Of a stretch of DNA of 64,000 nt, positions 28,812 through 48,204 are shown in pieces. Position 1 is the stretch's first letter, and each line of letters begins with the position of its first letter. Source of the stretch: Vicinamibacteria bacterium (GTDB lineage Bacteria > Acidobacteriota > Vicinamibacteria > Marinacidobacterales > Marinacidobacteraceae); NCBI GenBank assembly GCA_965116805.1, contig OZ220713.1, positions 532,942-596,941 of the forward strand, written 5' to 3'. The notes below the pieces were generated by a model. The model was given only the letters and a program-made list of their open reading frames with translations, had not been told where the DNA came from and searched no databases. Made by a program: the position numbers and the translations under genes.

Positions 28812-28873
28812 TCAGATCACATTATCGGAGGTGGAAGCCCCCGGCACAGCCCCCGGCAATTCGGGGGGGAAAG

Positions 28874-29325: not shown

Positions 29326-29374
29326 TAACGGTTCGCGTATCCGAAACGCTACCGGGAGGCGTCGCTGAGTGTTG

Positions 29375-30013
29375 ATGCGGTTTGAAGTTGGAGACAAGGT
29401 GATCTACCCGAATCAGGGGATCAGCATTGTCGAGAGTATTGAGTCCACCAACGGAACTGCAGGACCGAACTTCTATCGCCTGCGCCTGTTGTCAAAGTCA
29501 ACCCTGGTCATGGTTCCCATCGACAAGGTCGACGAGGTCGGGCTGCGGCCGATCATGACCGAGAGCGATGTCGAGGAAGTGCTCGACGTGCTCGAGAACG
29601 GCGCGGTCGACGAGCAGATCAACTGGAAGACCCGCTACAAGGACAACTCGGACCGCATGAAGAGCGGTTCGCCCGTGGAGGTTGCCGGAGTCCTCAAGGG
29701 GCTCTTCTATCTCAGCGAGCGAAAGACCCTCTCCTTCCGCGAGAAGCGGATGCTCGACCGGGCGCATCAGCTCACCGTGACCGAGGTCGCCGAAGTCGCC
29801 GAAGAAACCCTCGAGGCGGTCGAGCGGAAGGTCGTGGAGGCTCTCCGCCGCAGCCGGAACGGAGACAACGGCATCGAGGCCGTCGAGGGGGAGAACGACG
29901 GAGGAACCGGGGCGGCCACCAGCGTGGTGCCCCTCCGTCCGCCCAAGCGGCGCCGGGTCGCCAAGTCCGGCAGCGGACGGCGGCCGGTTTCGATCTCGAT
30001 CAACCGCTACTGA
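29375..30013 (+). CDS. carD: CarD family transcriptional regulator
   Basis: FEVGDKVIYPNQG, VGLRP, NWKTRYK, LSFREKRML. Confidence 0.93.
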   Translation: MRFEVGDKVIYPNQGISIVESIESTNGTAGPNFYRLRLLSKSTLVMVPIDKVDEVGLRPIMTESDVEEVLDVLENGAVDEQINWKTRYKDNSDRMKSGSPVEVAGVLKGLFYLSERKTLSFREKRMLDRAHQLTVTEVAEVAEETLEAVERKVVEALRRSRNGDNGIEAVEGENDGGTGAATSVVPLRPPKRRRVAKSGSGRRPVSISINRY

Positions 30014-30031
30014 CCCTTCGCCGGGACACGG

Positions 30032-30874: not shown

Positions 30875-30879
30875 GCGCA

Positions 30880-30930
30880 GCGGAGCGCCGGCCTCCGGCC
30901 GGCATCGCGGCCGCAGGCCGCGAAACGCAT
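30880..30930. repeat. REP-like element
   Basis: CGGAGCGCCGGCCTCCGGCCGGCATCGCGGCCGCAGGCCGCGAAACGC; reverse complement of copies at 34212, 34654 and 54097. Confidence 0.75.
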
Positions 30931-30982
30931 CACCGGGGGTGTTCCGGAGGACCCTTGGGCCACTAGAATCAACGCTCCGTCC

Positions 30983-32611: not shown

Positions 32612-33354
32612 GCGGTCCCGAACGAATCCTGGTTCTCCTCCGTCACGGGGAGAGCGTCTGGAACCGGCAGAACCGGTTCACCGGCTGGGCCGACGTGCCG
32701 CTCACCAACACGGGACACGAGCAGGCGCGGCGCTCCGGGGACCAGTTGCGGGAGGCCGGGATCGTTCCGGTGGTGGCGCACACCTCGGTCCTGCAGCGCG
32801 CCGTCCACACGCTCGAGGAAGTCCTCGGCCGGCTCGATCTGCCGGACCTCCCGATCCGGTACGCCTGGGAGCTGAACGAACGGCACTACGGACGGCTCCA
32901 GGGGAAGGACAAGGCCGAGACGGAGCGCGAGTTCGGGCCGGACCAGACGCTCGCCTGGCGCCGCAGTTACGCCGATCCGCCGCCGCCGGTGGACCTCGAC
33001 GACCGGCGGCACCCGCGGTTCGACGAGCGCTACGCGGAGGTTCCGGTGGACGTCCTGCCGCGCGGCGAATCGCTGCGGGACACCGCGCGGCGGGTGATCC
33101 CCTACTGGGAGCGGCGGATCGTTCCGGACCTCGCCCTGGGTCCGGTGCTGGTGGTCGCGCACGGCAACAGCCTGCGCTCGCTCGTCATGCACCTCGAGGG
33201 CATCGGGCCGGCCGAGATCCAGCAGCGGAACATCCCGACCGGGATCCCGCTGGTGTACCGGCTGGACGCGGCGCTGGGCGTGCTCGGCCAGCGCTACCTG
33301 GCGGGGGAAGCGGAGCTCACGGACGGGATCGCGAAGGCGATCCAGCGTCCGTAG
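32608..33354 (+). CDS. gpmA: 2,3-bisphosphoglycerate-dependent phosphoglycerate mutase
   Basis: LRHGESVWN, LNERHYG, AHGNSLR, NIPTGIP. Confidence 0.96.
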   Translation: MSGPERILVLLRHGESVWNRQNRFTGWADVPLTNTGHEQARRSGDQLREAGIVPVVAHTSVLQRAVHTLEEVLGRLDLPDLPIRYAWELNERHYGRLQGKDKAETEREFGPDQTLAWRRSYADPPPPVDLDDRRHPRFDERYAEVPVDVLPRGESLRDTARRVIPYWERRIVPDLALGPVLVVAHGNSLRSLVMHLEGIGPAEIQQRNIPTGIPLVYRLDAALGVLGQRYLAGEAELTDGIAKAIQRP

Positions 33355-33463
33355 TCACGCCGCCAGGGCGCGACGGCGTGGGGCCGCCCGCGGCCCTGCG
33401 GGCCGCTGTGCCGGCTGAAGCCGGCGTTCCAAGCCGACGCGTCACCCCGGTCCGCTGGCTGAA

Positions 33464-33534
33464 GTGCACGTTCGCTTCGACTTTTCCACAATTCGCGCGG
33501 GAACGGGAAGAAATGGGTCGGATTCTCGTCTAGG
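33464..33534 (+). promoter_or_regulatory. Conserved leader element, copy 1 (DnaA-box-like plus ECF-like promoter)
   Basis: GTGCACGTTCGCTTCGAC-TTTTCCACA-N15-GGAAG-N16-CGTCTAG; four other copies in the window. Confidence 0.7.
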
Positions 33535-33586
33535 GAAGTAGAGGGGGACGCCGGGTCTTTCTCTCCATTCACCGGAGGAGCGTTCG

Positions 33587-34135
33587 ATGCCCACCCAGCC
33601 CCCGCCGCAACCCTCGGCCCCCGAGCTGTCCGCCAAGCCGGCCCAACCGTCGGTGGACGCGTCGCCTTCCGGTCCGGACGCCGCTGCGAAACCGGTCCAG
33701 GAGGGAGCGCTTTTCCATCTGCTCGTGGAGCGCGGGTGGGATGCGGCGCTTGCGTATACTGCGGATCAACGAATACACGCCATGACTTCGGAGATTGCTG
33801 CCGCCGGCCTCAAGCCGGTGTTGGCAGAACTCGCGCGGATCCGCGAAACCATGGCCGGCTTTGCCACCAAGAAGGAACTCCAGACCGAACTCCGGCAGAT
33901 CCGCGAGAGCATGGTCACCAAAACGGATCTGGCCGATTTCGTCACCAGGGAGGACCTGAAGGCGACCCTGGCCGACTTCCCCACCAAGGCGGACCTGCGG
34001 CATGAACTCGCGGAGTTCCGGACGGATCTGCGGCGTGTACTCGCGGAGCGCGAGACGCGGCTCGTCAAGTGGGTGTTCGGGGCGCTGCTGGCGCAGACGG
34101 CGGTCATCGTCGGATTGGTGACGCTGCTGAGGTAG
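33587..34135 (+). CDS. Membrane-anchored coiled-coil protein, DUF1640/CCDC90-like
   Basis: Pro-rich N-terminus, repeated (F/M)(A/V/P)T(K/R)xDL beta-layer-type motifs, C-terminal LVKWVFG...TM; RBS GGAGGAG. Confidence 0.8.
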   Translation: MPTQPPPQPSAPELSAKPAQPSVDASPSGPDAAAKPVQEGALFHLLVERGWDAALAYTADQRIHAMTSEIAAAGLKPVLAELARIRETMAGFATKKELQTELRQIRESMVTKTDLADFVTREDLKATLADFPTKADLRHELAEFRTDLRRVLAERETRLVKWVFGALLAQTAVIVGLVTLLR

Positions 34136-34262
34136 CTGCCTCCGCCCGCCTCCGGCGAGCTTTGCCGGCTGAATGAAGCCGGCCCAGTTCTTCCGGTGGG
34201 GGGGAGCGGGGTGCGTTTCGCGGCCTGCGGCCGCGATGCCGGCCGGAGGCCGGCGCTCCGAG

Positions 34263-34580
34263 CGGACGCGCCGACCTGGCCGGGACGCCGCGAAACCGGC
34301 TCGGGAAGAGACGCTTTTCCAGCCGCTCGTGGAGAGCGGATGGGACCCGAGGCTCGCCTATACTGCGAACCAGCGGATACACGCCATGACTTCGGAGATT
34401 GCTGCCGCCGGCCTCAAGCCAGTGCTGGCGGAACTCGCGCGGATCCGCGAGAGCATGGTCACCAAGACGGATCTGCGGCGTGAGCTCGCTGAGCGCGAGA
34501 CGCGGCTCGTCAAGTGGGTGTTCGGGGCGATGCTGGCGCAGACGGCGGTGATCGTCGGATTGGTGACGCTGCTGAGGTAG
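34263..34580 (+). pseudogene. 5'-truncated, repeat-collapsed tandem duplicate of 33587..34135 (possible short CDS from ATG 34386)
   Basis: Near-identical sequence lacking the leader, the start and the internal ATK repeats; begins right after a REP. Confidence 0.7.
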
Positions 34581-34712
34581 ACGCCTCCGCCCGGCTGCGG
34601 CGGGCTTTGCCGGCTGGAGCCGGCCCGGTTCTTCCGGTGTGGAGGGGGCGGCGTGCGTTTCGCGGCCTGCGGCCGCGATGCCGGCCGGAGGCCGGCGCTC
34701 CGAGCTCCGAGC

Positions 34713-36014
34713 CTAGTGACCCTTGTGGCCGAGCGGACCCCGGGCGGAGCTGCGCTTCGCGCCGCCCTCGTCGTCGTCGGCCTCGGCGGCGTTGCCGCGC
34801 AGGATGGCGGGCACGTCCACTCCGGTGGAGGTCTTCAACTGCTCGAGGAAGGCGGCGATGGACCCGGTGAGGCCGCGCACGTGGTTCGGGACCGCGCCGC
34901 CGGTGCCGTTGTCCACCACGGTGAGCCGTTCCACGTGGAGGTTGTCGTGGAGCACGTGGGTGACCTTGTCGATGATCTGCGGGAGCATCTGCAGCAGCAT
35001 GATTTCCCGCGTGGTGTCGTCGTCCCACTGCGCCTTGATCTCGGCGAGGGCATCGGCGGTGGCCTTGCCGTTCTCGCGGATCCGGGAGGCCTCGCCCTGG
35101 GAGGTCAGCGCCCGGGCCTGGCTGGAAGCCTCGGCCGGCACCACCGTGTTGGCCTTCTCGCGAAGCTCGTTCCGCGCCACGCGGATCTCTTCGAGCTTGC
35201 GCTCTTCCTCGATCCGGGCCATGCGCTTCGCCACCTCGGCGACCTGTTCGGCCTGGTTCGACGCCGCGGCCCGCTCGGCCCGCCGCATCCGCACGCCGTG
35301 CTCGGCGTCCACGATGGCCTCTTCGGCGCTGGTCTCCGCGACCACCGCATCACGCTTCGCGTTCGCGGCCACGTCGCGCGCCTCGGCGTCCGCCCGGGCC
35401 TCGGCGACCTTGGCGTCCCGGCGGACGGCCGCGCTGCGCTTGCGGCCGATGGCGTCGAGGTAGCCCTCGGTGTCGGACAGGTGCTGGATCTTGAAGGTGT
35501 CCAGCACGAGGCCGAGCTGCGAGAAGTCCTGCCGCACCGCTTCCGACACCGCATCGCCGACGCCCAGCCGCTCGGCGTTCGCCTCCTCGGGAGTCCGGGT
35601 GGCGATGACGCCGCGCAGGCTGCCTTCGAGCGTCTGCTTCGCGACGGTCTGGATCTCGTGCTGGGTCCGGCCGAGGAAACGCTCCACCGCCTGGTCGAGG
35701 CCGCCCTCCGGATCGCCGGCGATCTTCACGGTCGCCATGCCGTCCACGTCCAGCGGGATCATCCCCGCCGACAGCGCCTTCTTGACCGTGACCTCGATGG
35801 GAATGGTGTTCAGGGAGATGCGGGACACCGTCTCGATGAGCGGACGGCGGAAACCGCGGCCGCCCCGGATGATGCGATAGCCCTTCTTCCGTCCCGAGAA
35901 GATCACCGCCTCGTTGGGGGCGCAGACCACCACGTGCGCGCGGATGAAGATGATGATCGCCAAGATCCCGACGATCGCGAGAGAAAGGGCGATTCCAATG
36001 GTTCCTGGAGTCAT
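34713..36014 (-). CDS. Flotillin/SPFH domain protein
   Basis: N-terminal TM, PNEAVIFSGR, AVERFLG, TLEGSLRGVIA, EGYLDAIGR, Ala/Glu coiled coil. Confidence 0.9.
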   Translation of the reverse strand: MTPGTIGIALSLAIVGILAIIIFIRAHVVVCAPNEAVIFSGRKKGYRIIRGGRGFRRPLIETVSRISLNTIPIEVTVKKALSAGMIPLDVDGMATVKIAGDPEGGLDQAVERFLGRTQHEIQTVAKQTLEGSLRGVIATRTPEEANAERLGVGDAVSEAVRQDFSQLGLVLDTFKIQHLSDTEGYLDAIGRKRSAAVRRDAKVAEARADAEARDVAANAKRDAVVAETSAEEAIVDAEHGVRMRRAERAAASNQAEQVAEVAKRMARIEEERKLEEIRVARNELREKANTVVPAEASSQARALTSQGEASRIRENGKATADALAEIKAQWDDDTTREIMLLQMLPQIIDKVTHVLHDNLHVERLTVVDNGTGGAVPNHVRGLTGSIAAFLEQLKTSTGVDVPAILRGNAAEADDDEGGAKRSSARGPLGHKGH

Positions 36015-36065
36015 GAAAGGGCCTCCGTGGCCGCTGGCCGGACGCTTTGCAAGCCGCTCCGAGAA

Positions 36066-37481
36066 TCAGCAGTCATAGTAGAGAGCGAACTCCGCGGGAT
36101 GGGGTCGCTGGTCCATGTAGGCGAGTTCGTTGGCCCGCTTGTAGCGGATCCAGGTATCGATGACATCGTGCGTGAAGACGTCGCCCCGCAGCAGGTACTC
36201 GTGGTCCTCCTCCAGCGCGTTGAGCGCCGCCTTGAGCGTCGGCGGGGTGTCGCCAATCTTCCGCAGTTCCGCTTCGGGCAGTTCGTAGAGGTCCTGGTCC
36301 ACCGGATCGGGAGGAACGATCCGGTTCGTGATGCCGTCGACCCCCGCCATCATGATGGCCGAGAAGGCCAGGTACGGGTTCGCGCTCGGGTCGGGACAGC
36401 GGAACTCGATCCGCTTGGCCCCCGGGGCGGCCGAATACATCGGGATCCGCACCGCGGCGGAGCGGTTGCTCCGGGAATAGACGAGCTTGTTCGGAGCTTC
36501 GAAGCCGGGGACGAGGCGCCGGTAGGAGTTGGCGGTGGGGCAGGTGAAGGCGCACAGCGACGACGCGTGCTTCAGGATGCCGCCGATGAAGAAGACCCCC
36601 GCCTCGCTGAGGCCGGCGTAGCCGTCCGGGTCGTAGAAGAGGTTCTTCCCCTTGCGCCACAGGCTCATGTGGCAGTGCATTCCCGAACCGTTGTCGCCGA
36701 AGAGAGGCTTCGGCATGAAGGTCGCGGTCCGGCCGTGCCGGTTGGCGGTGTTCTTGACGATGTACTTGAACTTCATCATTGAGTCCGCCATCTGGCTGAT
36801 CGTCGTGTACTTGATCCCGATCTCGCACTGGCCGCCGCTGCCCACTTCCTGGTGGTGGAGTTCGGCATCCACCCCGCAGTCGCGCAGGTTGGTGAGCATC
36901 TGCGAGCGCACGTCCTGGTAGGGATCCGTCGGGGGCATCCGGAAGTAGCCCTGCTTGAGTCCCGGCTTGTGGCCGAGGTTCGGCTTCTCGACCCGTCCGA
37001 CGTTCCAGGCGCCGATCCCGGAGTCCACGTAGTAGAAGGCCTCGTTCACCGTCTGGTCGAAGCGGACGTCGTCGAAGATGTAGAACTCGGCTTCGGGGCC
37101 GACGTAGCAGGTGTCGGCGAGCGCCGAGGTCTCGAGGAACCGGGTGGCCTTCTCGACGATGTTCCGCGGGTCGCGCGAATAGAGACTGAGGTCCACCGGG
37201 TCCTTGACGTTGCAGATGAAGACCAGGGTGGGCTCCTCGTAGAAGGGATCGATGAAGCCGCTGTCCGGATCGGGGCGGAGCAGCATGTCGCTCCGCTCGA
37301 TGCCCTGGAAGCCCCGGACCGAGGAACCGTCGAAGCCGATGCCGTGGACGAACATGTCCTCGTCGAAGGCCTCGATGGCGTAGGAGATGTGGCGCCAGCC
37401 GCCGAGGAGGTCCGTGAACCGGAAGTCCACGAACCGGATCTTGCGGTCCTGGATGACGCGGCGGACGTCGCGAAGAGACAT
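36066..37481 (-). CDS. glnA: Type I glutamine synthetase
   Basis: FDGSS, HHQEV, TFMPKPLFGDNGSGMHCH, NSYRRLVPGFEAP, NRSAAVRIP, DLY. Confidence 0.97.
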   Translation of the reverse strand: MSLRDVRRVIQDRKIRFVDFRFTDLLGGWRHISYAIEAFDEDMFVHGIGFDGSSVRGFQGIERSDMLLRPDPDSGFIDPFYEEPTLVFICNVKDPVDLSLYSRDPRNIVEKATRFLETSALADTCYVGPEAEFYIFDDVRFDQTVNEAFYYVDSGIGAWNVGRVEKPNLGHKPGLKQGYFRMPPTDPYQDVRSQMLTNLRDCGVDAELHHQEVGSGGQCEIGIKYTTISQMADSMMKFKYIVKNTANRHGRTATFMPKPLFGDNGSGMHCHMSLWRKGKNLFYDPDGYAGLSEAGVFFIGGILKHASSLCAFTCPTANSYRRLVPGFEAPNKLVYSRSNRSAAVRIPMYSAAPGAKRIEFRCPDPSANPYLAFSAIMMAGVDGITNRIVPPDPVDQDLYELPEAELRKIGDTPPTLKAALNALEEDHEYLLRGDVFTHDVIDTWIRYKRANELAYMDQRPHPAEFALYYDC

Positions 37482-37488
37482 GGAGCCG

Positions 37489-37830
37489 CTAGCCGATGGC
37501 CTGCGAGCCGCGCTCGCCGGTCCGGATCCGGATGCAGTCGTGGAGGTCGGTGACGAAGATCTTCCCGTCCCCCGCCTGTCCGGTCTGCGCCGCCCTGAGG
37601 ATCGCCTGGACCGCGCGCTCCACGAAGTCCTCGTTCACGGCGACGTCGATGCGGACGCGCTTCAGGATGTTCACCTGCGTCTGGACCCCGCGGAAGGTGG
37701 CCTGGTACCCCTTCTGGGTTCCGTGGCCGACGCCCGCGGTGATCGAGAACTTGTTGATCTGCGCTCCGAAGAGTTCCTCCTGGACCAGGGGAACCACCTC
37801 GGGTTGAACCATGGCGGTGACTAGCTTCAT
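37489..37830 (-). CDS. glnK: P-II family nitrogen regulator
   Basis: MKLVTAMVQP, TGQAGDGKIFV, IRIRTGERG; adjacent to amtB. Confidence 0.92.
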   Translation of the reverse strand: MKLVTAMVQPEVVPLVQEELFGAQINKFSITAGVGHGTQKGYQATFRGVQTQVNILKRVRIDVAVNEDFVERAVQAILRAAQTGQAGDGKIFVTDLHDCIRIRTGERGSQAIG

Positions 37831-37858
37831 GTCGTGACAGCCTCGAAGGAAGTTCCCC

Positions 37859-39175
37859 TCAGGAACCCAGGATCTGGAAGCCGGTGTAGGACTCCATGCC
37901 GTGCTCGTTCATGTCGAGTCCGCGAATCTCTTCCATCCGGTCCACCCGGAGGCCGAGCACCGCCTTGATGGCGATGAACACGAGGCCCATGGAGAGGAAG
38001 ACGAAGATGCCGGAGGCGAAGGTGCCGAGCGCCTGGATCCCGAGCTGCTCGAAGCCGCCGCCGTAGAAGAGCCCCTCCCGGGCGAGTCCGAGCGATTCCC
38101 TCCCCCATAACCCGACGGTCAGGGTCCCCCAGATGCCGCAGAGGCCGTGCACCGGGAAGGCGCCGCACGGATCGTCCACCTTGATGATCCGCAGCAGCCC
38201 CTCACCGAGGACGATCACGAACCCGCCGGTCACGCCGATCCAGATCGCGGCCGCCGGGCTCACCACCGCGCAGGGCGCGGTGATCGAGACCAGGCCGGCG
38301 AGCGCCCCGTTCATGGTGAAGAACAGGTCGGGCTTTCCGAACAGGATCCAGGAGATGAAGGTCGTGGTCACCGCGGCGGCGGCGGCGGCGAGGTTCGTGT
38401 TGATGGCGATCAGCGAGATGGCCTCCCCGTCGCCCACCGCGAGGTTGGAACCCGGGTTGAAGCCGAACCAGCCGAACCAGAGGATGAAGACCCCGAGCGA
38501 GGCCAGCGGCACCGAGTGGCCGGGGATGGGGTTCGAGGAGCCGTCGGCGTTGAAGCGGCCGAGGCGCGGCCCCAGGATCATGGCGCCCACCAGCGCCGTC
38601 GCGCCTCCGGTCAGGTGGACGACCGTCGAGCCCGCGAAGTCGAAGAAGTCGAGCTGGGCCAGCCAGCCGCCGCCCCAGGTCCAGTGTCCGACGACCGGGT
38701 AGACGAACGCGGAGATGATGAAGGAGTACGCGAGGTAGGCGGGGAACTTCATCCGCTCCGCCATCCCGCCGGCCACGATGGTGGCCGCGGCGCCGCAGAA
38801 CGCCGCCTGGAACAGCCAGAACGCCCACAGCGGCACGTCGGCGCCCGACTCGGCGCCCACCAGGAAGAAGCCGCTGGTCCCGAAGAAGGGGTTCCCCTCC
38901 GAGAACATGATGGCGTAGCCGAACACGAAGAACCCGAGCGACGCCATGCAGTAGTCGAGGAAGTTCTTCGTGAGGATGTTGCAGGTGTTCTTCGCGCGGA
39001 TGAAACCGGCCTCCAGCATCCCGAACCCGGCCTGCATGAGGAACACGAGGAACGCGGACACCAGCACGAACAGGGTGTCGAGCCCCACCGTGCTCGCGCC
39101 GCCGTCGTCCTGCGCAAACGCGGGTTCGGTCAGCAGGAGGGCGGCCAACCCGATCAGCGGAATTCGCCTCAGCAT
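37859..39175 (-). CDS. amtB: Ammonium transporter
   Basis: LVFLMQAGF, DFAGSTVVH, ILWFGWFGFN, NGALAGLVSITA, DDPCGAFPVHG. Confidence 0.96.
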   Translation of the reverse strand: MLRRIPLIGLAALLLTEPAFAQDDGGASTVGLDTLFVLVSAFLVFLMQAGFGMLEAGFIRAKNTCNILTKNFLDYCMASLGFFVFGYAIMFSEGNPFFGTSGFFLVGAESGADVPLWAFWLFQAAFCGAAATIVAGGMAERMKFPAYLAYSFIISAFVYPVVGHWTWGGGWLAQLDFFDFAGSTVVHLTGGATALVGAMILGPRLGRFNADGSSNPIPGHSVPLASLGVFILWFGWFGFNPGSNLAVGDGEAISLIAINTNLAAAAAAVTTTFISWILFGKPDLFFTMNGALAGLVSITAPCAVVSPAAAIWIGVTGGFVIVLGEGLLRIIKVDDPCGAFPVHGLCGIWGTLTVGLWGRESLGLAREGLFYGGGFEQLGIQALGTFASGIFVFLSMGLVFIAIKAVLGLRVDRMEEIRGLDMNEHGMESYTGFQILGS

Positions 39176-39334
39176 CAGGACCTCCTCCTCAGGAGCACTT
39201 GTCTCCGGATGCCCGCCATCCCGGCCGGGCGTCCCTACACGGGCGCGGAGCGTACGGCCACAGGCGCGGGCGGGTCAACCCCGGCACGGCGCCGGCGATC
39301 ACGGTTGTATATGGCACGCCGGTCCGCGCGGCGG

Positions 39335-40207
39335 CTACACCGTCAGTCCGGTGACGGTCAGCAGCGCCATCAGGCCGAGCATCACAGTCACGGCGTGGAC
39401 GGTCATCAGGACGAACTGCTTCGCGAGGGTCTTCAGCACCCCGTCCGCGTAGACGCGGCGCAGCGACAGGAAAAGCGCCGTCAACAGCGCCAGATAGGCG
39501 ATCGTGGACGGGATCTGGGTGTCGAGGATCAGGGTTCCGCTGGCGCCGGCCACGAGCAGCACGAACGCGAGCGTGTGGAAGTGCAGCGCGAACACCAGGT
39601 GCGGAACGAAGTAGCGCTCCCGCCGGCGGTACAGCAGCCGGAGCCAGAGGGCGAAGAGGGGAACCTGGGCGAACACCGTCCACTGGAGCCGCTGGTGGAA
39701 GAGCCGCTGGGCGCGTTCCGGAGCTTCGAGCGCCGGCTGGAACACATGTTCCGAGAACCAATCGGGTTCGTCTTCGCCGGACTCCGAATCCTCGCCTTCG
39801 ACAACCTCCACAGCGATCGGCGCCGCACCGGAGGGCAGATCGACGGGGGGAGGTCCCGAACCGATCCGGAGCGGCGCCCAGGGGTTGGTACCGGTCGCGT
39901 CGAGGACCGCGTTCGGCGCGGTGAACACGAGGAAGAGGAAGCTCACGAAGCTGACGATCAGGTACAGCCGCAGCGGCGTCACGAACCGGGCCCGGCGCCC
40001 CGCCCAGTAGTCCGCGGTCAGCGAGCCGGGCCGGCGGAAGAGCGCGACGAGCGTCCGCCAGATCCGCGAATCGAACGAGAAGACGTCGTCCAGGGCCTCG
40101 CGGAGGAACGCGCTGACCGGCGTCCGCAGTTCGGCGGCGCGCTGGCCGCAGGCGGGGCAGTACCGCTCCACCTGCCCGGACCCGCAGTTCGGACAGCGCT
40201 CGCTCAT
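39335..40207 (-). CDS. DUF3667 domain membrane protein
   Basis: CPNCG...YCPACGQ, FDSRIWRTL...PGSLTADY.AGRR..PLRLYL. Confidence 0.88.
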   Translation of the reverse strand: MSERCPNCGSGQVERYCPACGQRAAELRTPVSAFLREALDDVFSFDSRIWRTLVALFRRPGSLTADYWAGRRARFVTPLRLYLIVSFVSFLFLVFTAPNAVLDATGTNPWAPLRIGSGPPPVDLPSGAAPIAVEVVEGEDSESGEDEPDWFSEHVFQPALEAPERAQRLFHQRLQWTVFAQVPLFALWLRLLYRRRERYFVPHLVFALHFHTLAFVLLVAGASGTLILDTQIPSTIAYLALLTALFLSLRRVYADGVLKTLAKQFVLMTVHAVTVMLGLMALLTVTGLTV

Positions 40208-40416
40208 CGTCGAAACGCGAGCGTACCCGGTTGCCCGGGCTTGCTGTCCCGTTGGCCGTTCTTGCTGTTCGTCCACGGCGGCGTTTTTTCCTTGCGCGCC
40301 CTTGCTGTTTCGTTGTCCCTGCCTGCTGTCTTCGCGTTCGCCTCGGGTGCGTTCGGGTTGCGCGCGCGGAACACGCGTTTCATCCTGCTGCGTACGAGTC
40401 CCCGGGGGCCGATGTC

Positions 40417-40737
40417 ATGGCAGGAAACAGGACACATAGCGTCGCACTCAAACGGCAGGTCGTTCAGGAATACCTCGACGGCGAGACGCTCCACGGACTG
40501 GCGCGCCGTCACGACCTGCCCCACAACCTGATCCGCCTCTGGGTGGATGAAACCCTGTATCCCGCGCAGCGCGGCGAACCGGGCGAAGCTCCCGCTCTCG
40601 AGGACCTCGCGGCGCTCGCCCGGGCGATCCATGAATGCGAGACGCGCATCGAGGCCATCGAGCGTCTCGTCGCCCGGCGCGCCGCGCAGTTCGGGATCCG
40701 GCGCCGGGAACGGCCGCCGGGCGCCGCATCCGATTGA
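40417..40737 (+). mobile_element. IS3-family OrfA-like HTH transposase fragment (no OrfB visible)
   Basis: RTHSVALKRQVVQEYLDGETLHGLARRHDL...LIRLWV...IEAIERLV. Confidence 0.7.
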
Positions 40738-41067
40738 CCCCGTAGGCCGAACTCCCGCGGACGGGAACCGCCGGGGTGCGATGCATCGCATGGGCAGGTC
40801 ATTTGTTGTCGGGACATCGAACGCCGAACGCAACCTCCTGCAACGTCTTCATGCTGCAGCGCCAACCGCCGCTACGGACGTTGACGGATCGACGCGTCCA
40901 CTGCACGGCCCGTCACATTCGTTCATGCGATATCCCGCACACTTCGAAGTTTGTCGCACTATCGAAATGACGCGCGACACGAACACGGCGTCACTGCCTC
41001 CAGTTTGCACAGTTGACCGAGAACAGTTATCAATACGTGACACTCATTGGGATCGTGGTGGTGCTTC

Positions 41068-41997
41068 ATGGAGAACAGCCGACGCCGGCGCACTGATTTC
41101 GACACTGCACTTCGTCTCGGCAGACACGTACCCGCCAAGTACATAACGGGGACCCAACTCGGCACCAGCAACGGCCGGGGATGGAAACGGCTGCTGGCCG
41201 AGCGCTGGCGTCACGCGCCGGGCCAGCTCGGCAACGCGCCGGGACAGGAAACGGAAGTCGCCGTCATCCTGCGGGGCCGTCTGCCCGTCCGCCGCCGCGA
41301 CAACGGCCGGGCGCAGGACTGCTACGCCATTCCGGGCACGGTGGCGCTGTGTCCCGCCGGCTTTCAGGAGGAGAGTTTCCAGCTCCGGGGGGAGATCGGC
41401 GAATGCGTCCACCTGTTCCTGCCCCGGCTCGCGGAAACGGCGCTTCGTGAACTCGACGCCGATCCCGGCAGGATCCGGCTCCGCTACGAGAAGGCGTTCC
41501 GCGATCCCCTGATCGAGGGAATCGCCCGGGCGATCCGCGCGGAGATGCTCGATCCCACCCCGGCGGGCAACATGCTGGCGGAGACCCTGGCCACGGCGCT
41601 CGAGGTTCATCTGCTTCAGCGTCACTCCAGCCTGACCGCCGCCGCCTCGTCCCTCCCGACCGCCCGCGGGGCGCTCGATCCCGGACGGCTCGGCCGCGTC
41701 ACGGACTACATCGAGACCCATCTGGCCGAAGACCTGACCATCGAGGCGCTCGCGAACGAGGCCTGTCTGAGTCCCTTCCACTTCGCCCGCGCCTTCAAGG
41801 CGGCGACCGGCATGGCGCCGCACCGCTACCTCACGAGCCGCCGGCTCGAGAAGGCCCGGTCCTGGATCGCGGAGGGCCAGCTCTCGCTCGCCGAGATCGC
41901 CTTCCGCTGCGGGTTCGCCTCCCAGGCCTCGTTCACCAGGTGGTTCAAGCGCCTCGCCGGCGCCACCCCCGGCGAATACCGATCAGGCGACGCCTGA
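41068..41997 (+). CDS. AraC family transcriptional regulator
   Basis: C-terminal double HTH: LTIEALANEACLSPFHFARAFK...LSLAEIAFRCGFASQASFTRWFKR..GATPGEYR. Confidence 0.92.
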   Translation: MENSRRRRTDFDTALRLGRHVPAKYITGTQLGTSNGRGWKRLLAERWRHAPGQLGNAPGQETEVAVILRGRLPVRRRDNGRAQDCYAIPGTVALCPAGFQEESFQLRGEIGECVHLFLPRLAETALRELDADPGRIRLRYEKAFRDPLIEGIARAIRAEMLDPTPAGNMLAETLATALEVHLLQRHSSLTAAASSLPTARGALDPGRLGRVTDYIETHLAEDLTIEALANEACLSPFHFARAFKAATGMAPHRYLTSRRLEKARSWIAEGQLSLAEIAFRCGFASQASFTRWFKRLAGATPGEYRSGDA

Positions 41998-42003
41998 GGA
42001 AGG

Positions 42004-42145
42004 GGACCGGGACCGCCGGTCTTCAGACCGGCACCGCGGGCCGCAGGCCCGCGCACAACACACCGCCACCAACCCCAGATCGCGCCCACGGCTTGGAACG
42101 CCGGCTTCAGCCGGCACAGCGGGCCGCAGGCCCGCGCACAACACG
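42004..42145. repeat. REP-like cluster
   Basis: GGGACCGCCGGTCTTCAGACCGGC and GGCTTGGAACGCCGGCTTCAGCCGGC hairpins, each followed by GCGGGCCGCAGGCCCGCGCACAACAC. Confidence 0.75.
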
Positions 42146-42222
42146 CCGCCACCAACGCCAGATGGCCGCGCACGGCGCTCCCAGCCGGGGACACCATCAC
42201 CGCTCCTAACCCACCCGCGGAA

Positions 42223-42293
42223 GTGCACATTCGCTTCGACTTTTCCACAAAACCCTCCGAAGCGGGAAGAAACGGGGCCGAATTCCGTCTAGG
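42223..42293 (+). promoter_or_regulatory. Conserved leader element, copy 2
   Basis: GTGCACATTCGCTTCGAC-TTTTCCACA-N15-GGAAG-N16-CGTCTAG. Confidence 0.7.
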
Positions 42294-42343
42294 AAAGTAG
42301 AGGAGGACACCGCGTCCTCCGACGCTTCCCCCAGGAGTTCCCG

Positions 42344-42886
42344 ATGCCCTCCCAGCCCGCCCCGGCGCCCGCCCCCGAACCTACGCCGAAGCCGGCCCCC
42401 CCACCCGCCGACGCTCCGCCACCCGTCCCGGACGGCGCCCCACCCGAACCTCCCGAGGAAGGCGCCATCTTCCACGCCTTGCTCGACGCGGGGGTCGAGG
42501 CGAAGCTCGCCTATACTGCGGAAAAGCGAATGCACACCATGACTTCCGAGACCGTCGCCGCGCACACGCAGCCGATCCTGGAGGAAGTCAGCCAGCTCAC
42601 CATGCAGGTTCGCGACCTCGCCGAGATGGTCCGCGGCCTCACCGAGCAGGTTCGCGACCTCGCCGAGACCGTCGCCGAGAACCACCGCACGGTCACCGCC
42701 GATATCCAGGCGCTCAAGGAGGCCGAAGCCGAACAGGATCGCAAGTTGGATGAGCTTGCCAAGGCCGTCGCCACGCACGACCGCAAGCTGGACGTGCTGT
42801 CAGCCCAGATGCGGCTGGTGACAGGCGCGCTCGGCCTCCTGATCACCGCCCTCATCGCGGTCTTCGGCATCCTGTTCACAAGGTAG
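42344..42886 (+). CDS. Membrane-anchored coiled-coil protein, paralog of 33587
   Basis: Pro-rich N-terminus, shared head EGAIFHALLDAG...LAYTAEKRMHTMTSE, heptad stalk, C-terminal TM. Confidence 0.8.
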   Translation: MPSQPAPAPAPEPTPKPAPPPADAPPPVPDGAPPEPPEEGAIFHALLDAGVEAKLAYTAEKRMHTMTSETVAAHTQPILEEVSQLTMQVRDLAEMVRGLTEQVRDLAETVAENHRTVTADIQALKEAEAEQDRKLDELAKAVATHDRKLDVLSAQMRLVTGALGLLITALIAVFGILFTR

Positions 42887-43285
<399 letters not shown>

Positions 43286-43449
43286 GGCTGACGGCGCACG
43301 CGGAATGCCCGGCCGGCGCGCCATCCCCGGACCGCCCGGTGGCACGCCCGGCTTGGAACGCCGGTCTCCAGACCGGCACGCGCGGCGCTCCGCGCCGCGC
43401 ACGGCGCAACCTCATTCACCGTCACAGCACCCACGCCGGAGATTTCCTG

Positions 43450-44560
43450 GCTCCGGTCGATATCCAGGGCCGGCGGGCGGAGCCTTAGGCCGATAACGCC
43501 CAGCTCCGGTCGATATCCGGGGCCGGCGGGCGGAGCCTTAGGTCGATAACGCCAAGCTCCGGTCGATATCCGGGGCCGGCGGGCGGAGCCTTAGGTCGAT
43601 AACGCTGAGCTCCGGTCGATGTCCAAGGCCGGCGGGATGGAGCCTTAGGTCGATAACCCGAGCTCCGGTCGATATCCGGGGTCGGCGGGTTGGAGCCTTA
43701 GGTCGATAACGCCGAGTTCCGGTCGATATCCGGGGTCGGCGGGTTGGAGCCTTAGGTCGATAACGCCGAGTTCCGGTCGATATCCAGCGCCGGCGGACGG
43801 AGCCTTAGGTCGATAACGCCGAACTCCGGTCGATATCTAGGGCCGGCGGGCGGAGCCTTGGGTCGATAACGCCGAACTCCAGTCGATATCCAGGGCCGGC
43901 GGGCGAAGCCTTAGGTCGATATCGCCCAGCTCCGGTGGATATCCGAGCCCGGCGGACAGAAGCTCCGGTCGATAACGCCGAGCTCCGGTCGATATCGAGG
44001 GCCGGCGAGTGCAGGCTCCGGTCGATAACGCCAAGCTCCGCTCCCTTCGCCTCGCGGCCGCCCGGCCGGAAGCAGCCCTCCCTTCAAGGAACACCAGTGC
44101 GCAAAAGTTGGTGTCTCCCAAACTGCGTACAAGTTCGTGTCTCTTGACCATAACGCCGAGCTTGGGTCGATATCGGGGACCAGCGGATGGAAGCTCCGGT
44201 CGATATCCAGGGCCGGCGGGCGGAGCCTTAGGTCGATATCGCCTACCTCCGGTCGATATCCGGGGTCGGCAGGCTCGAGCCTTAGGTCGATATCGCCCAT
44301 TTCCGGTCGATATCCAGGGCCGGCGGGCGAAGCCTTAGGTCGATATCGCCCAGCTCCGGTCGATATCCGAGCCCGGCGGACAGAAGCTCCGGTCGATAAC
44401 GCCGAGCTCCGGTCGATATCCGAGGTCGGCGGGCGGAGCCTTAGGTCGATAACGCCAAGCTCCGGTCGATATCCGAGGTCGGCGGACGAAAGCTCCGGTC
44501 GATATCGCCAACCTCCGGTCGATATCCGAGGTCGGCGGACGAAAGCTCCGGTCGATGACA
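43450..44560. repeat. Non-coding tandem array of about 19 imperfect 53-bp units in two blocks (43450-44040 and 44146-44560)
   Basis: Consensus approximately GCTCCGGTCGATATCCRGGGCCGGCGGGCGGAGCCTTAGGTCGATAACGCCGA; GGTCGATA cores alternate 33 and 20 bp apart. Confidence 0.93.
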
Positions 44561-44587
44561 GCGGTCGGTGAGCGCCGCCGAGCCGCG

Positions 44588-45676
44588 CTACGCGCTGTCG
44601 TCGGGCCAGCCGTCAATCCCCGGGGGCCGACCCGTGGAGCGGTAAGCCTGCTTCGGATGCCTGATCTGGTCGGGAATCGTGCGCTCGACGGCGCCGTCGT
44701 CGACAAGCGCGCTGAGATGGCGCTTGGCGAGATTCGCGGGATCCATCTGCAACAGCAATCCCAGGTCCTCAGAGGTCTGCTCGCCGCACTCGTTCAGGAT
44801 CCTCCAGATGGTGTATCGCAGCACCGCCTTCCGAGGACGCTTGCCCAGCCTGAGGATCTCCCCGCGCAGGCGCTTTGACATCTTCGCGAGCGCGTCGGCG
44901 CGCGGCCCTGGGGGCAGGCCGGGGACGGGGGAGGTGGCCGCCCGGACGGGTTCTGCGGAGCCGCTGGCCGGCGGATCCTCCCGGGACGGTTCCGGTTCGG
45001 ACGGATCTGGCGGAGACGGTTCCGCTGAGGGTGGTGCCGGTGGGGATGGTTCGGGTCCGGACACCTCGTTTGTCGGCGATCCCGCCGCGCCGGGGGAAGC
45101 GGAGGCTTCTTCCCGGCTCGTCGGACCGCCGCGAGTGGATGCACGCGGCTCGTTCGTCCCCGGGCCATCCGGTGTTTCGGTGGCTGACTCCGACCCTGGT
45201 CTGGAAGGCGGCCGCTCCCGTTCGGGCGGGCGTTCGCGGTGTCCGGGCTCGTTTTCCCACATCCTGGGGACGCGCTCCGCCTCGCTGCCGATGCCCAGGA
45301 GCGCGAGCGCGAAGCGGCCGAGCGACCGGCTGCCGTCGGCCAGATGCCCGGCCACCGCGCGGCCCCGGCTTCCGGGCGGAAACGTCCCTTCCAACCGCAC
45401 GCTCAACCGGCTTGCGGCCCCGCGCAACGCCTGAATGATCCTGGCCGTCTTGCGAAGCGTCTCGACCGTGCGGCGGAGCGCCGGACCGCTGTTCGCCCGC
45501 AGCCAGCGGTAGACCTTGCGGACGCCTTTCGCAGTATGCGGCACCCAGAGCCACAGGCGGCGGAGCCGGGGGCGCGGCTTCGAGAGCCAGTCGCGGATGA
45601 GATCGAGACCGAGCGGCTCCTCGGTCGGCGGCTCCTTGGGAGGAGCCGGATCGCCGCGGAGATTGAGTCCTTCCAC
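44588..45676 (-). CDS. Hypothetical protein with Pro/Ser/Glu-rich linker and C-terminal winged-helix (Fic-like C-terminal type) domain
   Basis: C-terminus LGKRPR..LRYTIWRIL...TSEDLGLLLQMDPANLAKRHLSALVDDGAVERTIPDQIRHPKQAYR resembles the wHTH ends of AlbA/RecG-C and Fic proteins. Confidence 0.7.
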   Translation of the reverse strand: MEGLNLRGDPAPPKEPPTEEPLGLDLIRDWLSKPRPRLRRLWLWVPHTAKGVRKVYRWLRANSGPALRRTVETLRKTARIIQALRGAASRLSVRLEGTFPPGSRGRAVAGHLADGSRSLGRFALALLGIGSEAERVPRMWENEPGHRERPPERERPPSRPGSESATETPDGPGTNEPRASTRGGPTSREEASASPGAAGSPTNEVSGPEPSPPAPPSAEPSPPDPSEPEPSREDPPASGSAEPVRAATSPVPGLPPGPRADALAKMSKRLRGEILRLGKRPRKAVLRYTIWRILNECGEQTSEDLGLLLQMDPANLAKRHLSALVDDGAVERTIPDQIRHPKQAYRSTGRPPGIDGWPDDSA

Positions 45677-45901
45677 GAGGGGCGAGCTTACTGGAGCCGG
45701 TCGCCGGTTTTCGTTGGTTTACTGTTCCTTTTTTGAGTGACTTATTTGTAAGTTACGGATGCAATTGACTGATGTAATGACAACACGGCCACCCCTCCGG
45801 GTCTTGGAGACGTGGAGGGATGCGTGTAGGCGGCGGGAGCCCCGGTCGATAGCGCGAAGCTCCTGTCGATTCCGGGGGCCAGCGGACGGAGGCTCCGGTC
45901 G

Positions 45902-46216
45902 ATGACACGGGCGCTCGCGGACACCAGTTCCGATGAGGCGCCCACCTATACTGCGGACGCGCACACCGAGTCCATGGTTCCCGAGACCGCCGCCGCGCAG
46001 GCGCGTCCTATCGTCATAGAAATGCGGCGCGTTGACCAGGAGTGGCACGCACACTTCGGCGAGATGGAGCTGCGACCGGACCCGTTCGCATACGACCCCT
46101 GGGAGGGAGTCCGCAAGCTGGACAAGCTCATCACCCAGATGTGGGTGGTGCTGGCCCTGATGGGCGTGGCACTGATCCTGGCATTCGCCATTCTCGGTCT
46201 CCTGCTGACCCGCTGA
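45902..46216 (+). CDS. Short degenerate paralog of the membrane-anchored coiled-coil family
   Basis: PTYTAD...SMVPETAAAQARPI matches the family head (AYTA..MTSETVAAHTQPI); C-terminal TM ending LLTR. Confidence 0.55.
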   Translation: MTRALADTSSDEAPTYTADAHTESMVPETAAAQARPIVIEMRRVDQEWHAHFGEMELRPDPFAYDPWEGVRKLDKLITQMWVVLALMGVALILAFAILGLLLTR

Positions 46217-46247
46217 CGGCGGCAGGTGTTCCCGATGCCGCCGCCGC

Positions 46248-46336
46248 CCAGATGCGGCTCCTGGTGGCGCGGCCTGGACCTGCTGGTGACCGTCCTGATC
46301 GCGGTCTTCGGCTTCCTCTTCGCGAACACGAACTGA
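46248..46336 (+). pseudogene. Frameshifted fragment of a family C-terminal TM anchor
   Basis: CAGATGCGGCT...CTGATCGCGGTCTTCGGC matches 42806-42886. Confidence 0.55.
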
Positions 46337-46575
46337 ACTGGTCGGGTGTCCCGAGGCGCACCGCGCCGCGTGTGGCTTTGAGCCCTCACGGTGCGGCGGC
46401 TCGGAGCGCCGACCTCTGGTCGGCATCGCCGAGCGCAGCGAGGCAAAACCGCACACCCCCAGGGAGCCGACCGCGGCTCTCACGTCCCCATCGCGCGGTG
46501 CCATCAACACGGGTTGTGCGCTCCCGGGCGATGCTGGCTTGAAGCCGGCGCTCCCCTACGGCCGCCACCGCCCTT

Positions 46576-46646
46576 ACGCACCTTTGCTTCGACTTTTCCA
46601 CATTCCGGCCCCGGGCGGGAAGAAACGGGCCCGAATTCCGTCTAGG
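46576..46646 (+). promoter_or_regulatory. Conserved leader element, copy 3 (orphan, no downstream gene)
   Basis: GCACCTTTGCTTCGAC-TTTTCCACA-N15-GGAAG-N16-CGTCTAG, followed by lower-GC DNA. Confidence 0.65.
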
Positions 46647-46712
46647 GAATGCCCGAGAGCCAATACTGACTCTGTAGCCTGGGTTGATGCCTGGGGATTC
46701 GTAGCTCGCCAC

Positions 46713-47135
46713 TTAAGTCACTAGCTTGTCTTTGTCTTCTGCCTTCAGGATTAGGCTGAACAACTCGCCGACCTCTAGTTCCGAATCGTCGTAACCGAGA
46801 TCGCGCCGCATCTCGCGAACGATGCTGTCGAACGCCCTGAGAACGTCCGGCCCACCCTCTCCTGCGCTCTTCTCCATGTGATTCCACGCCCTGATGACTC
46901 CAGCACTTGCGAAGAGCATCAGTTCGCGCTTGTGTCCCATGATCTTGGCGATATCTCGTGCGGGTATCTCGCTTCGTCCTGAAGCAGAATTCCGACTGAC
47001 AATCTCCATGTAGTCATTGATCGCCTTTCCGTAGACTCGGCGTTTTTCCGGATACAAGCGGCTTTCGATTTCCCTGGCCCTAATCTGATTTTGCTGATGC
47101 CATGCGGCCACCAAGCCACCGAATAATCCCTTCAT
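46713..47135 (-). CDS. Hypothetical protein, lower GC, possibly 5'-truncated
   Basis: 140-aa helical ORF with atypical codon usage downstream of the tmRNA. Confidence 0.65.
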   Translation of the reverse strand: MKGLFGGLVAAWHQQNQIRAREIESRLYPEKRRVYGKAINDYMEIVSRNSASGRSEIPARDIAKIMGHKRELMLFASAGVIRAWNHMEKSAGEGGPDVLRAFDSIVREMRRDLGYDDSELEVGELFSLILKAEDKDKLVT

Positions 47136-47481
47136 GGCTCTCTTTTCCCTTTCGGCTCATCCCTTCTGGGGGAATCCCCGTTAAGACAATAGCCCACTCC
47201 CTTTCCGACTGGAGCCCCCCGTCACCGTGCGGCGGCGCTTGCCGCGCTCTTCGTGGATGACACAGTACGTCGCCATCGTGGCAGTTCCCCTATCGACAAA
47301 GTAAGGGACCAGAAACGGATGTGCCCCTGCCGACAGTTCTCCGCTCTTTCCGGCTGCCCTCGATTGCCGTTACCTCGCCAGACAACTAACAGTGCAAGCG
47401 TCGACTCGTCAACGAAGCGCGGTACTTTCGAGTTGCAACGGTTCTCGCGGAACAGCAGAGAGCAACCAAACTCAGGCCACT

Positions 47482-47852
47482 TGGTGGAGGCGGCGGGAAT
47501 CGAACCCGCGTCCGAAAGCCTTCGACAACGACGTCTACATGCATATCCGGGTTGTGGCGGGAACCCGCGCCCGGAGGCGCCTTTCCCTGCTTCGGCCCCG
47601 CGGCGCATCAACCCGGCGAATCGCGCCGTAGGACCTATCCCTGAGTCTCACCGGCGGCTCGGGAGGACCGCCAGCCAAGCCCGCCTAGTCGACGTCCTTT
47701 CCCGCCCGGCAGGCGTGGTCAGGAAGGACGTGGCTTATGCAGCCAGTGCCAGATCAGTGTTGGCGTTTGTTGTGTTTCCACCGTTTACGGGAGATGGACC
47801 CCCGACATGCAGTCGTTGCTTCATGTACCTTCGTCGAACCCAGTACGCCCCC
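47482..47852 (-). ncRNA. ssrA: tmRNA; tag peptide (A)ANTDLALAA at 47764-47735
   Basis: 5' GGGGGCGTACTGGGTTCGAC; 3' GACGCGGGTTCGATTCCCGCCGCCTCCACCA; internal ORF ending LAA-stop. Confidence 0.96.
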
Positions 47853-48204
47853 TCCTCGCGCGAGTCAAGGCGGCAATTCCGGGGCCGAAAACCGGCCCCG
47901 TATCCCGGTGGGGACAGTTGCCCCGCACTCAGGACCGCGTCGCGAATCGGCTACGATTGTAGCAGCCTGTGATGAGGTCGCGCGGCAGCCAACCGGCGGT
48001 GGATTTCCGGCGGGAGCGGCTCTCCGGTGGGGGGGATGCTGGTGAGCGGATTGGCTTGGGGAGCGTGCTGGGGATGAGAGAGGTGGCGCTATCGGGGCGG
48101 GTTTCGCGGTTGTGCGCGATGGTGGCCGGGGGGCGGCGTTCCGAGGCGGGGGTGCCGTCTCCGCTGGTTGGCTCCGCGCCGAGGCCGGAGCCACCTGGTT
48201 CCGG

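Follow-up and report, generated by a model that had tools for sequence, protein, structure and literature searches.

A phased repeat array beside a winged-helix gene in a Vicinamibacteria chromosome as a putative cognate docking module

Iterated-site arrays beside the gene of their binding protein are a known kind of arrangement. In P1, the layout is incC-repA-incA, with iterons that comprise a handful of sites at a period of ~22 bp, and partition centromeres consist of 7-12 or more tandem sites, which are coated cooperatively by a small DNA-binding protein encoded alongside; TubR, for example, is a winged-helix protein. In Sulfolobales, the lineage-specific helix-turn-helix (HTH) protein Cbp1 recognises the repeat units of long chromosomal CRISPR (clustered regularly interspaced short palindromic repeats) arrays. 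Here, we describe a phased tandem-repeat array that adjoins a winged-helix gene, open reading frame (ORF) 44588-45676 on the - strand, in the chromosome of a Vicinamibacteria bacterium. The analysed stretch, referred to as the window, comprises 64,000 nt (assembly GCA_965116805.1, contig OZ220713.1, positions 532,942 to 596,941). Sequence comparison makes it likely that the array is the cognate docking array of the adjoining winged-helix protein and that both form, together with a conserved control region, a three-part chromosomal module. The protein family is new, and its multi-class chromosomal deployment is unusual; a literature search covering titles and abstract openings returned no published description of such modules or of the organism.

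By analogy with the systems named above, the module would in its mode of action come closest to iterons or centromeres together with the proteins that bind them. With iterons and Rep of the P1/F type it shares the asymmetric direct repeats, the whole-turn phasing and the position beside or on both sides of the presumed binder's gene; binding of one monomer per site is probable, and there would be scope for autoregulation, titration and 'handcuffing' of separate arrays. Unlike iterons, the modules are chromosomal, number five per genome and contain 10-40 sites at a 32-bp period, and a single winged helix without a recognised Rep domain is found, with no DnaA box around the module and no match among plasmid records. 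The systems sopC/SopB, parC/ParR and tubC/TubR likewise combine tandem sites with an adjoining DNA-binding gene, and TubR has a winged helix, too; in contrast to these, no ParA, ParM or TubZ occurs among the neighbours scanned, many classes reside on one chromosome, some arrays are orphans, and the protein carries a long acidic linker and a coiled-coil hairpin. As in repetitive extragenic palindromic (REP) sequences and REPINs with their REP-associated tyrosine transposases (RAYTs), a chromosomal gene is flanked by its own repeat class, several classes co-reside, each with a gene, and copies are dispersed. However, the module protein lacks the HUH/Y1 domain, and its repeats are tandem, direct, non-palindromic and in one orientation rather than hairpin pairs. 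Similar to Cbp1, a lineage-specific HTH protein is presumed to recognise the units of long chromosomal arrays, whereas the window array has no spacers or cas genes, the gene is linked to the array and the specificities have diversified in parallel.

Anatomy of the array, its gene and the control region

The anatomy and phasing of the module can be read directly from the window. Tandem Repeats Finder (TRF) reported 43450-44538 as one array with a period of 53, 20.5 copies and 76% matches. At ≤1 mismatch to the 8-mer GGTCGATA, 37 head-to-tail cores are found in 43450-44560, spaced by 33/34 bp (19 times) or 19/20 bp (16 times) with a single 145-bp gap. This agrees well with the sequence-only reading of the window, which had counted about 19 units with about 38 cores in a 33+20 rhythm. 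The exact 8-mer occurs 33 times in the window, on the + strand only (32 at 43455-44517 and one at 45844), while shuffled windows contain a mean of 0.89 and never reached 33 (0/100 shuffles). The nearly invariant 8-mer of that reading proved to be part of a longer conserved block of 14 bp, CTYM-GGTCGATA-WC (positions -4 to +9, C-T-Y-M-G-G-T-C-G-A-T-A-W-C), with 1.0-2.0 bits per position; the drift of the DNA between the cores was borne out, with mostly <1 bit per position, so that the cores are far more conserved than their surroundings.

The array of 1.1 kb that had been described is present, but it is interrupted. Its distal part (43450-44039, + strand) comprises 22 cores of the type CTYM-GGTCGATA-WC in the alternating 33/20-bp rhythm, antisense to the gene. 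The 145-bp gap then reflects a foreign element of ~125 bp (44040-44160) with two ~23-bp direct repeats, which was inserted within a core, between GGTCG and ATAACG. The gene-proximal part (44161-44560, + strand) adds 15 cores, and the final core at 44550-44557 is ~30 bp short of the stop codon of ORF 44588-45676 (-), consistent with the proximity noted earlier. The degenerate unit proposed on the other side of the gene was found as well: a vestigial upstream array at 45836-45907 (+) holds three degenerate cores at 45844, 45864 and 45897, and this site corresponds to the main-array position in most family members. The last 70 nt of the main array (44491-44560) recur at 45838-45907 with 81% identity as a direct repeat, so that array units bracket the gene cassette. 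The array is unlikely to be an assembly artefact, since contigs of the public DNA sequencing runs X1 and X2, possibly the source samples, match internal array segments with 0 differences and independent assemblies show the same kind of array; all read evidence used here consists of contigs.

Between the gene and the vestigial cores lies an A+T-rich control region of 160 bp (45677-45835, - strand). It carries the element GTAAGTTAC at 45748-45756 (+), ~80 nt upstream of the GTG start, and the element TAAGTCACT at ~45736-45744, both of which are kept in all specificity classes of the family. The more general pattern GTAA-N-T-N-AC, mostly as GTAAGTTAC or GTAAGTGAC, is present 75-104 nt upstream of the start codon in 18/25 loci (L008, L023 and L025 being excluded from this count), with one match in the remaining ~88 kb of those loci. 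In the window genome, GTAAGT[TG]AC has nine copies, four of which are directly upstream of four of the five family genes.

The gene product has 362 aa, and its architecture is that of a basic antiparallel coiled-coil hairpin (residues ~17-136) containing the invariant motif PxGLxxIRxWxxKPRPxL, a disordered acidic Pro/Glu/Ser linker of ~120 aa (residues ~137-255), whose length varies among homologues, and a winged HTH of probable Fic-like_C type (residues ~256-350). The AlphaFold model contains one winged helix only, predicted confidently (pLDDT, predicted local distance difference test, ~91), and a long helical hairpin as N-domain (pLDDT ~60). A profile of the N-domain matched antiparallel coiled coils and chemoreceptor hairpins (E 1.6e-5 to 3e-4), and the protein atlas gave no usable match for this domain. 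The sole Pfam match of the window protein was a weak one to Fic-like_C (PF21247; 18.9 bits versus a cut-off of 27), a domain that scores 29.2 bits in the paralogue L041 and 26.9 bits in L040. NCBIfam, PHROGs and PADLOC contained no family for it, and neither these libraries nor Pfam revealed a catalytic domain. The protein appears to share the C-terminal winged-helix type with Fic and AlbA_2/HATPase_c_4 proteins, but it has no Fic, AlbA_2 or ATPase domain and possesses its own N-terminal domain and linker. Few polar residues are invariant. On the basis of the model, the fold fits a tethered DNA binder; the combination of basic hairpin, flexible acidic linker and winged helix suggests many DNA-bound winged helices with bundled N-domains.

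Foldseek against the PDB returned nothing at E ≤ 0.001 and generic winged helices only (MarR, ArsR, Z-alpha and Fic C-terminal kinds). VIA-align against 48,161 chains aligned generic winged helices (Z 7-9) and generic helical hairpins (Z 7-8), which corresponds to background level; among the chains, the Fic protein 4rgl aligned to the winged helix with Z 7.3 and 31% identity. Among the types of centromere-binding protein, Pfam gave no match to ParB or ribbon-helix-helix (RHH) families; as to a TubR-type relation, the fold matches generic winged helices alone (Z 7-9), which is compatible either way. In a collection of 5.8 billion proteins we found 63 homologues, none with a functional name and one with a precomputed PF21247 domain. 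A profile search against 1.84 billion representatives gave 57 proteins at E ≤ 1e-30, mostly full-length relatives or their fragments, and 2073 proteins at E ≤ 0.001, mostly via the winged helix alone. Thirty distant matches were scanned further, with PF21247 in 20 (E ≤ 0.001; seven above 27 bits) and HATPase_c_4 in ten, several of which also had AlbA_2. Loci with full-length relatives are all titled Acidobacteria, Vicinamibacteria or Candidatus Marinacidobacterium, and the N-terminal coiled-coil domain and the linker are lineage-specific.

Association of arrays with the protein family

A search of 28 genomes of the taxonomic family yielded matches in 14 genomes, corresponding to 28 loci; within the genus, 12 of 15 other genomes matched. 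At 25/28 homologue loci from the 14 genomes, an array with a period of 31-33 or 53-54 bp lies within ~1.5 kb of the gene, confirming the co-occurrence that the sequence-only reading had proposed to look for. A second locus set, partly from the same genomes, contained an array in 15/19 cases. The array is placed upstream only at 20 loci, downstream only at three (the window locus, L004 and L005) and on both sides at two; locus L015 is included among the 25 only via a weak downstream array (33 bp, 3.3 copies) and was scored as none in this placement tally. For most relatives, the distance between the gene and its upstream array is ~100-200 bp. The polarity is fixed as well, with cores antisense to the gene in 10/10 loci of class A, the core class of the window.

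Core and protein have diversified together. Proteins with ≥50% identity to the window protein are associated with a common core, TATCGACCGGA (gene strand), while more distant clades have different cores, for example ATAGACGCATGC, ATAGACGCCGGTGG, TATCGCACCCAG and GTGCATGGAGTTCC; units of most classes also contain a constant CCGAC-like segment ~10 nt 5' of the variable core. Mapped onto a 24-protein maximum-likelihood tree (L007, L008, L015, L023 and L025 left out owing to unclear starts or fragments, L041 added), the 10 core classes need 9 changes, which is the minimum possible; shuffled class labels needed a mean of 15.1 changes and reached 9 in 0/200 cases. Single clades are formed by class A (8 rows), class C (5, support 82), class B (2, support 84) and class D (2), the supports of C and B being moderate only. 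The recognition helix and wing carry class-specific residues, in contrast to the invariant N-terminal motif. The period of 31-33 bp is retained between clades that are merely 25-30% identical. Within class A, arrays with a plain 32-bp period occur at L006, L007, L009 and L019, and the 33+20 form is found at five loci, namely in the clade L003/L004/L005/L017, which holds the window protein, and at L018, whose place on the tree is unsettled. The 53-bp rhythm is a derived 33+20 state. Taken together, the phased array and winged-helix protein proposed as a two-part system do go together across loci, with the core following the protein clade; the iteron or centromere label attached to that proposal fared worse, as shown below.

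The window genome, a single contig of 3.56 Mb with 69.8% G+C, contains only 20 tandem-repeat regions of ≥150 bp. It has 139 exact GGTCGATA cores, and 120 of them are concentrated in six arrays: seven in A1 near 488 kb, 32 in A2, which is the window array, at 576 kb (~0.58 Mb), 18 in A3 and 26 in A4 (together at 1.2016-1.2045 Mb), eight in A5 at 1.403 Mb and 29 in A6 at 2.057 Mb. A paralogue gene (1202532-1203806), whose product is 64% identical to that of ORF 44588-45676, is located exactly between A3 and A4, and A1, A5 and A6 have no family gene beside them. The family profile search detected five family genes in this genome, each with a ~32-bp-phased array within ~0.7 kb. For example, the gene at 3307226 adjoins an array with the core AAGTGCATGGAGTTCC, the split gene at 990410-991470 (-) one with the core GGGGCGATAC, and the gene at 874755 has ten TAGTGACAGGAGCT sites upstream. 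The split gene is class B-like and is broken, probably by a frameshift, into two overlapping frames. The array beside it (991578-991980, 12.6 copies) is intact and exemplifies an array that outlives its gene.

At the level of the genus, the 13-mer TCCGGTCGATAWC has 10-136 copies in 13/16 genomes, including the window genome, but 0-1 copies in the other three and in 12 genomes of other genera; the reversed TCCGGTCGATAWC control gave 0-1 copies. All seven genomes that carry a class A gene contain TCCGGTCGATAWC sites (7/7).

Inserted elements, other repeats and neighbouring genes

The two ~23-bp direct repeats of the ~125-bp element in the window array are of the GGGAGACACCAACTTTTGCGCAC type and lie on the - strand. 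The same element was found in or beside A1, A5 and A6, with copies at window 44040-44160 and at genome positions 488435-488560, 1401223, 2057917-2057941 and 3342420-3342527. At ≤5 mismatches, the 23-mer gave 11 matches at ~8 genome places, four of them in or beside GGTCGATA arrays. The A5 copy holds a nested insertion sequence of the IS256/Mutator family with 23-bp inverted ends, and Mutator transposase genes are also close to the modules L037 and L038; arrays may be favoured targets or safe sites for insertions. Besides that, a putative HicB-like ORF, read from its translation, is nested inside the orphan array A6 (genome 2057214-2057458), a HicA toxin gene lies between two arrays in another species (L039, 7781-8008), and three units with a core of another type, AGCTATACGCATT, are found within A5. 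It seems that nested cassettes build up in arrays.

Most arrays are bordered by a G+C-rich, REP-like palindromic element (GCGCGGCGC..GCGCCGCGCGTGCCGGTCT..AGACCGGCG), which occurs at window 43310-43440 and 46340-46560 and in the flanks of A1, A3, A5 and A6. Each genome of the genus carries hundreds of copies of it, and in the window genome it also forms its own tandem arrays of 82-83 bp (1396763, 3220414 and 3341431). A synteny test across the genus with the left flank of the window array (42300-43440) was unusable, as the matches were swamped by these copies.

The window neighbours encode glutamine synthetase, P-II, an ammonium transporter, an AraC-type regulator and small coiled-coil membrane proteins, in addition to a tmRNA (transfer-messenger RNA) gene. 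A Phd/YefM-type antitoxin gene (42929-43285, +) is not followed by a recognisable toxin gene, and the array starts ~165 bp downstream of it, at the expected toxin position. The tmRNA gene (47482-47852, -), with the tag peptide ANTDLALAA, is 1.8 kb from the module. An island at this gene gained no support: the stretch 28000-47900 revealed no direct repeat of the tmRNA 3' end, and Pfam detected no integrase among the scanned ORFs from the array to the tmRNA gene. A conserved leader of ~100 nt (GCTTCGACTTTTCCACA...GGGAAGAAA...GTCTAGGGAA) is located at window 33458-33557, 42217-42316 and 46570-46669, and TTTTCCACA is further present at 18531, 54179 and 55912. The leader is followed by paralogous genes (33542-34135 and 42344-42886) that each code for a small coiled-coil protein with a membrane helix at its C-terminus, and further paralogues of these genes lie at 34173-34580 and 45902-46216; no gene of this kind follows the copy at 46570. 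The leader may represent a shared promoter or leader RNA.

Among 72 neighbours at 16 further loci we found housekeeping genes, toxin-antitoxin genes, Fic, AlbA_2/HATPase_c_4, AAA_14/DUF4143, trypsin-like peptidases, insertion sequences and integrases. Some modules occupy syntenic sites in different species: L031 and L039 have peroxidase, carbonic anhydrase and ERG4-like genes in common, L032 and L036 a peptidase M14 gene, and L034, L040 and L043 trypsin-like peptidase genes, with AAA_14 at L034 and L040 and Nramp at L034 and L043. Synteny between species therefore indicates long-term retention of the modules.

Candidate mechanism and alternative explanations

Whole-turn phasing, fixed polarity, a period kept over deep divergence and cores that change in parallel with the recognition helix argue for function rather than drift, and the proposed link between gene and array draws on the comparison of many loci rather than on a single adjacency. 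For binding, stoichiometry, oligomerisation, autoregulation and array pairing, we infer the following scheme. Each asymmetric 14-bp core would be bound by a single, monomeric winged-helix domain, in the head-to-tail manner of iteron binding. With spacings of 32/33 bp (~3 turns) and 20 bp (~2 turns), all bound domains would be on the same face of the helix, and the ~120-residue acidic linker would allow the basic coiled-coil N-domains of neighbours ~70-110 Angstrom apart to bundle. In this way, 20-40 proteins would coat an array and create one large nucleoprotein body. The complex probably also controls expression of its own gene, because the array lies within ~100-200 bp upstream in most relatives and the GTAAGTTAC element is fixed at ~-80. 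Unlinked arrays with the same core (A1, A5 and A6) would be bound in trans and possibly be paired with the gene-linked array. Candidates for the cellular purpose are a chromosome landmark or tether, local silencing and titration.

Several points weigh against the array being the docking site of the adjoining protein. The main loose ends are the orphan arrays and the class-independent GTAAGTTAC element. Half of the GGTCGATA arrays (A1, A5 and A6; 3/6) have no adjoining family gene, and four more gene-less arrays with other core types are located at 76, 354, 1516 and 3404 kb. The sequence-only reading had named arrays unlinked to the gene as evidence against a tie, and such arrays do occur in part: besides A1, A5 and A6, at least five related genomes have sites with no detectable cognate gene. 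A directed profile search found no class A gene in five genomes with 12-39 class A sites (assemblies of 80-410 contigs), and the family-wide search found none in a sixth site-bearing genome, G020, a fragmented assembly. The winged helix could in principle bind the family-wide, operator-like GTAAGTTAC element instead, the arrays being bound by something else. Furthermore, three of the 28 loci lack a TRF row of ≥3 copies, although at L024 the contig ends only 74 bp upstream, L025 is a gene fragment and L028 has ten TAGTGACAGGAGCT sites upstream nonetheless. Class E is spread over more than one clade of the tree, the core classes were set by eye from consensus lines, related genomes are non-independent samples, and the N-domain model is of low confidence (pLDDT ~60).

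An extension of the docking-array reading, which we regard as possible but rather doubtful, is a bacterial counterpart of satellite DNA. Here, at least eight co-resident, lineage-specific protein/array pairs would form class-specific nucleoprotein bodies, in which each protein gathers its linked and orphan arrays by means of the tethered coiled-coil domain and thereby pairs distant loci; in the window genome, the class A arrays at 0.49, 0.58, 1.20, 1.40 and 2.06 Mb would pair. If true, this would be a new bacterial way to organise, mark or silence parts of the chromosome, with the arrays possibly serving as landing pads for gene cassettes as well.

It is unlikely that the module is a selfish or semi-selfish element of repeats plus gene, comparable to REP/REPIN with RAYT, in which the satellite spreads or persists through the protein and the cassette, lying within an array, can be lost or transferred to a different array by recombination between units. 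Several observations are in line with such an element, including the 70-nt array-unit repeats (81% identical) that bracket the gene, the paralogue with full arrays on both sides, the orphan arrays dispersed in the genome, and the nested cargo, i.e. the HicB-like fragment in A6, the units of another core in A5 and HicA at L039. Insertion sequences, integrases and toxin-antitoxin genes are often nearby, and in contigs of three runs 43460-43464 is joined directly to 45910-45938, which skips both array and gene (flanks of only 27-65 letters, perhaps other strains). However, the libraries searched (Pfam, NCBIfam, PHROG and PADLOC) gave the weak winged-helix match and no recognisable catalytic domain, Pfam gave no Y1_Tnp or other transposase family, and few polar residues are invariant. 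The syntenic module sites in different species and the lack of matches to the window protein among plasmids (72,556 records), phages (50,697 records) and viral contigs likewise speak against it. A selfish element would also require binding of the array by the protein and in this respect overlaps with the docking-array reading.

Far less probable is that the module belongs to an integrated plasmid-like element and serves as its iteron replication origin or partition centromere, the winged-helix protein being the initiator or centromere binder. Phased direct repeats beside or around a DNA-binding gene resemble P1 incC-repA-incA, sopC and parC, an A+T-rich stretch of 160 bp separates the upstream sites from the gene, and the window is close to a broad minimum of GC skew at 0.45-0.9 Mb. 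Against this label, Rep, ParA/CbiA, ParM and TubZ families are absent among the 26 window proteins scanned (module-flanking genes included) and the 72 neighbours of 16 related loci. The protein itself matched no Rep family (Pfam and NCBIfam), and its model has a single winged helix versus two in the Rep_3 and RepA/TrfA types. No DnaA-box-like site (TTATCCACA, ≤1 mismatch) was found in 43300-45900, and dnaA at 735946 is ~158 kb away. The modules, five per chromosome, lie on Mb-scale chromosomal contigs without plasmid, phage or viral-contig matches to the window protein, and 20-40 sites at a 32-bp period differ from known iterons. We also considered a replication-fork barrier, as 4/5 class A array loci point the way in which forks presumably move; since the origin can be placed only roughly, this carries no weight.

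Slightly less probable again is that the array acts as a transcribed repeat RNA that is processed to unit-length small RNAs, as in CRISPR or otherwise. No terminator-like site was found between the stop codon of the gene and the array, and contigs of the sponge metatranscriptome library X3 cover 44513-45620 at ~97% identity, one of them (44513-44957) running from the gene into the last array units; DNA carry-over is possible in such contigs, and array parts without RNA-library cover carry no meaning. The fold-back (GCTCCG...CGGAGC) and the processed RNA that had been suggested from the letters gained no support, as six RNA folds, covering one or two units and both strands, yielded z scores of -1.28 to +0.55 versus shuffles, i.e. 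chance level. Rfam matched only the tmRNA and two tRNAs in the whole window and nothing in the array. In most relatives the array is upstream of the promoter region and thus outside the transcript. That the array is not CRISPR, as already stated in the sequence-only reading, is in agreement with the drifting consensus between cores, without unique spacers (period 53 = 33+20; 32 bp in relatives), and with the lack of a Cas family among the 26 window proteins scanned; one Cas_GSU0053 protein among the 72 neighbours in related loci lies ~2.6 kb from the module in L032.

A neutral minisatellite (variable-number tandem repeat) that came to lie next to the gene by chance and without functional tie is the least probable of all: unit order and number do vary between strains (several internal skips in contigs of run X4) and higher-order array periods (107, 160 and 213 bp) occur as typically produced by unequal crossing-over, but the adjacency in 25/28 loci across protein clades of 25-30% identity, the conserved period, the fixed polarity, the clade-specific cores and their much better conservation than the intervening DNA argue against it.

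If the docking-array reading holds, the DNA-binding domains of this small clade and the 14-bp sites that match them would make up a natural orthogonal set, the two having co-diversified. The family would then be a case for reading how a winged helix changes its specificity, and it may offer a toolbox of non-cross-reacting tether/array pairs. For the biology of these bacteria, phased arrays at syntenic chromosomal sites without replication or partition partners would point to a form of chromosome marking or long-range pairing that is undescribed in bacteria.

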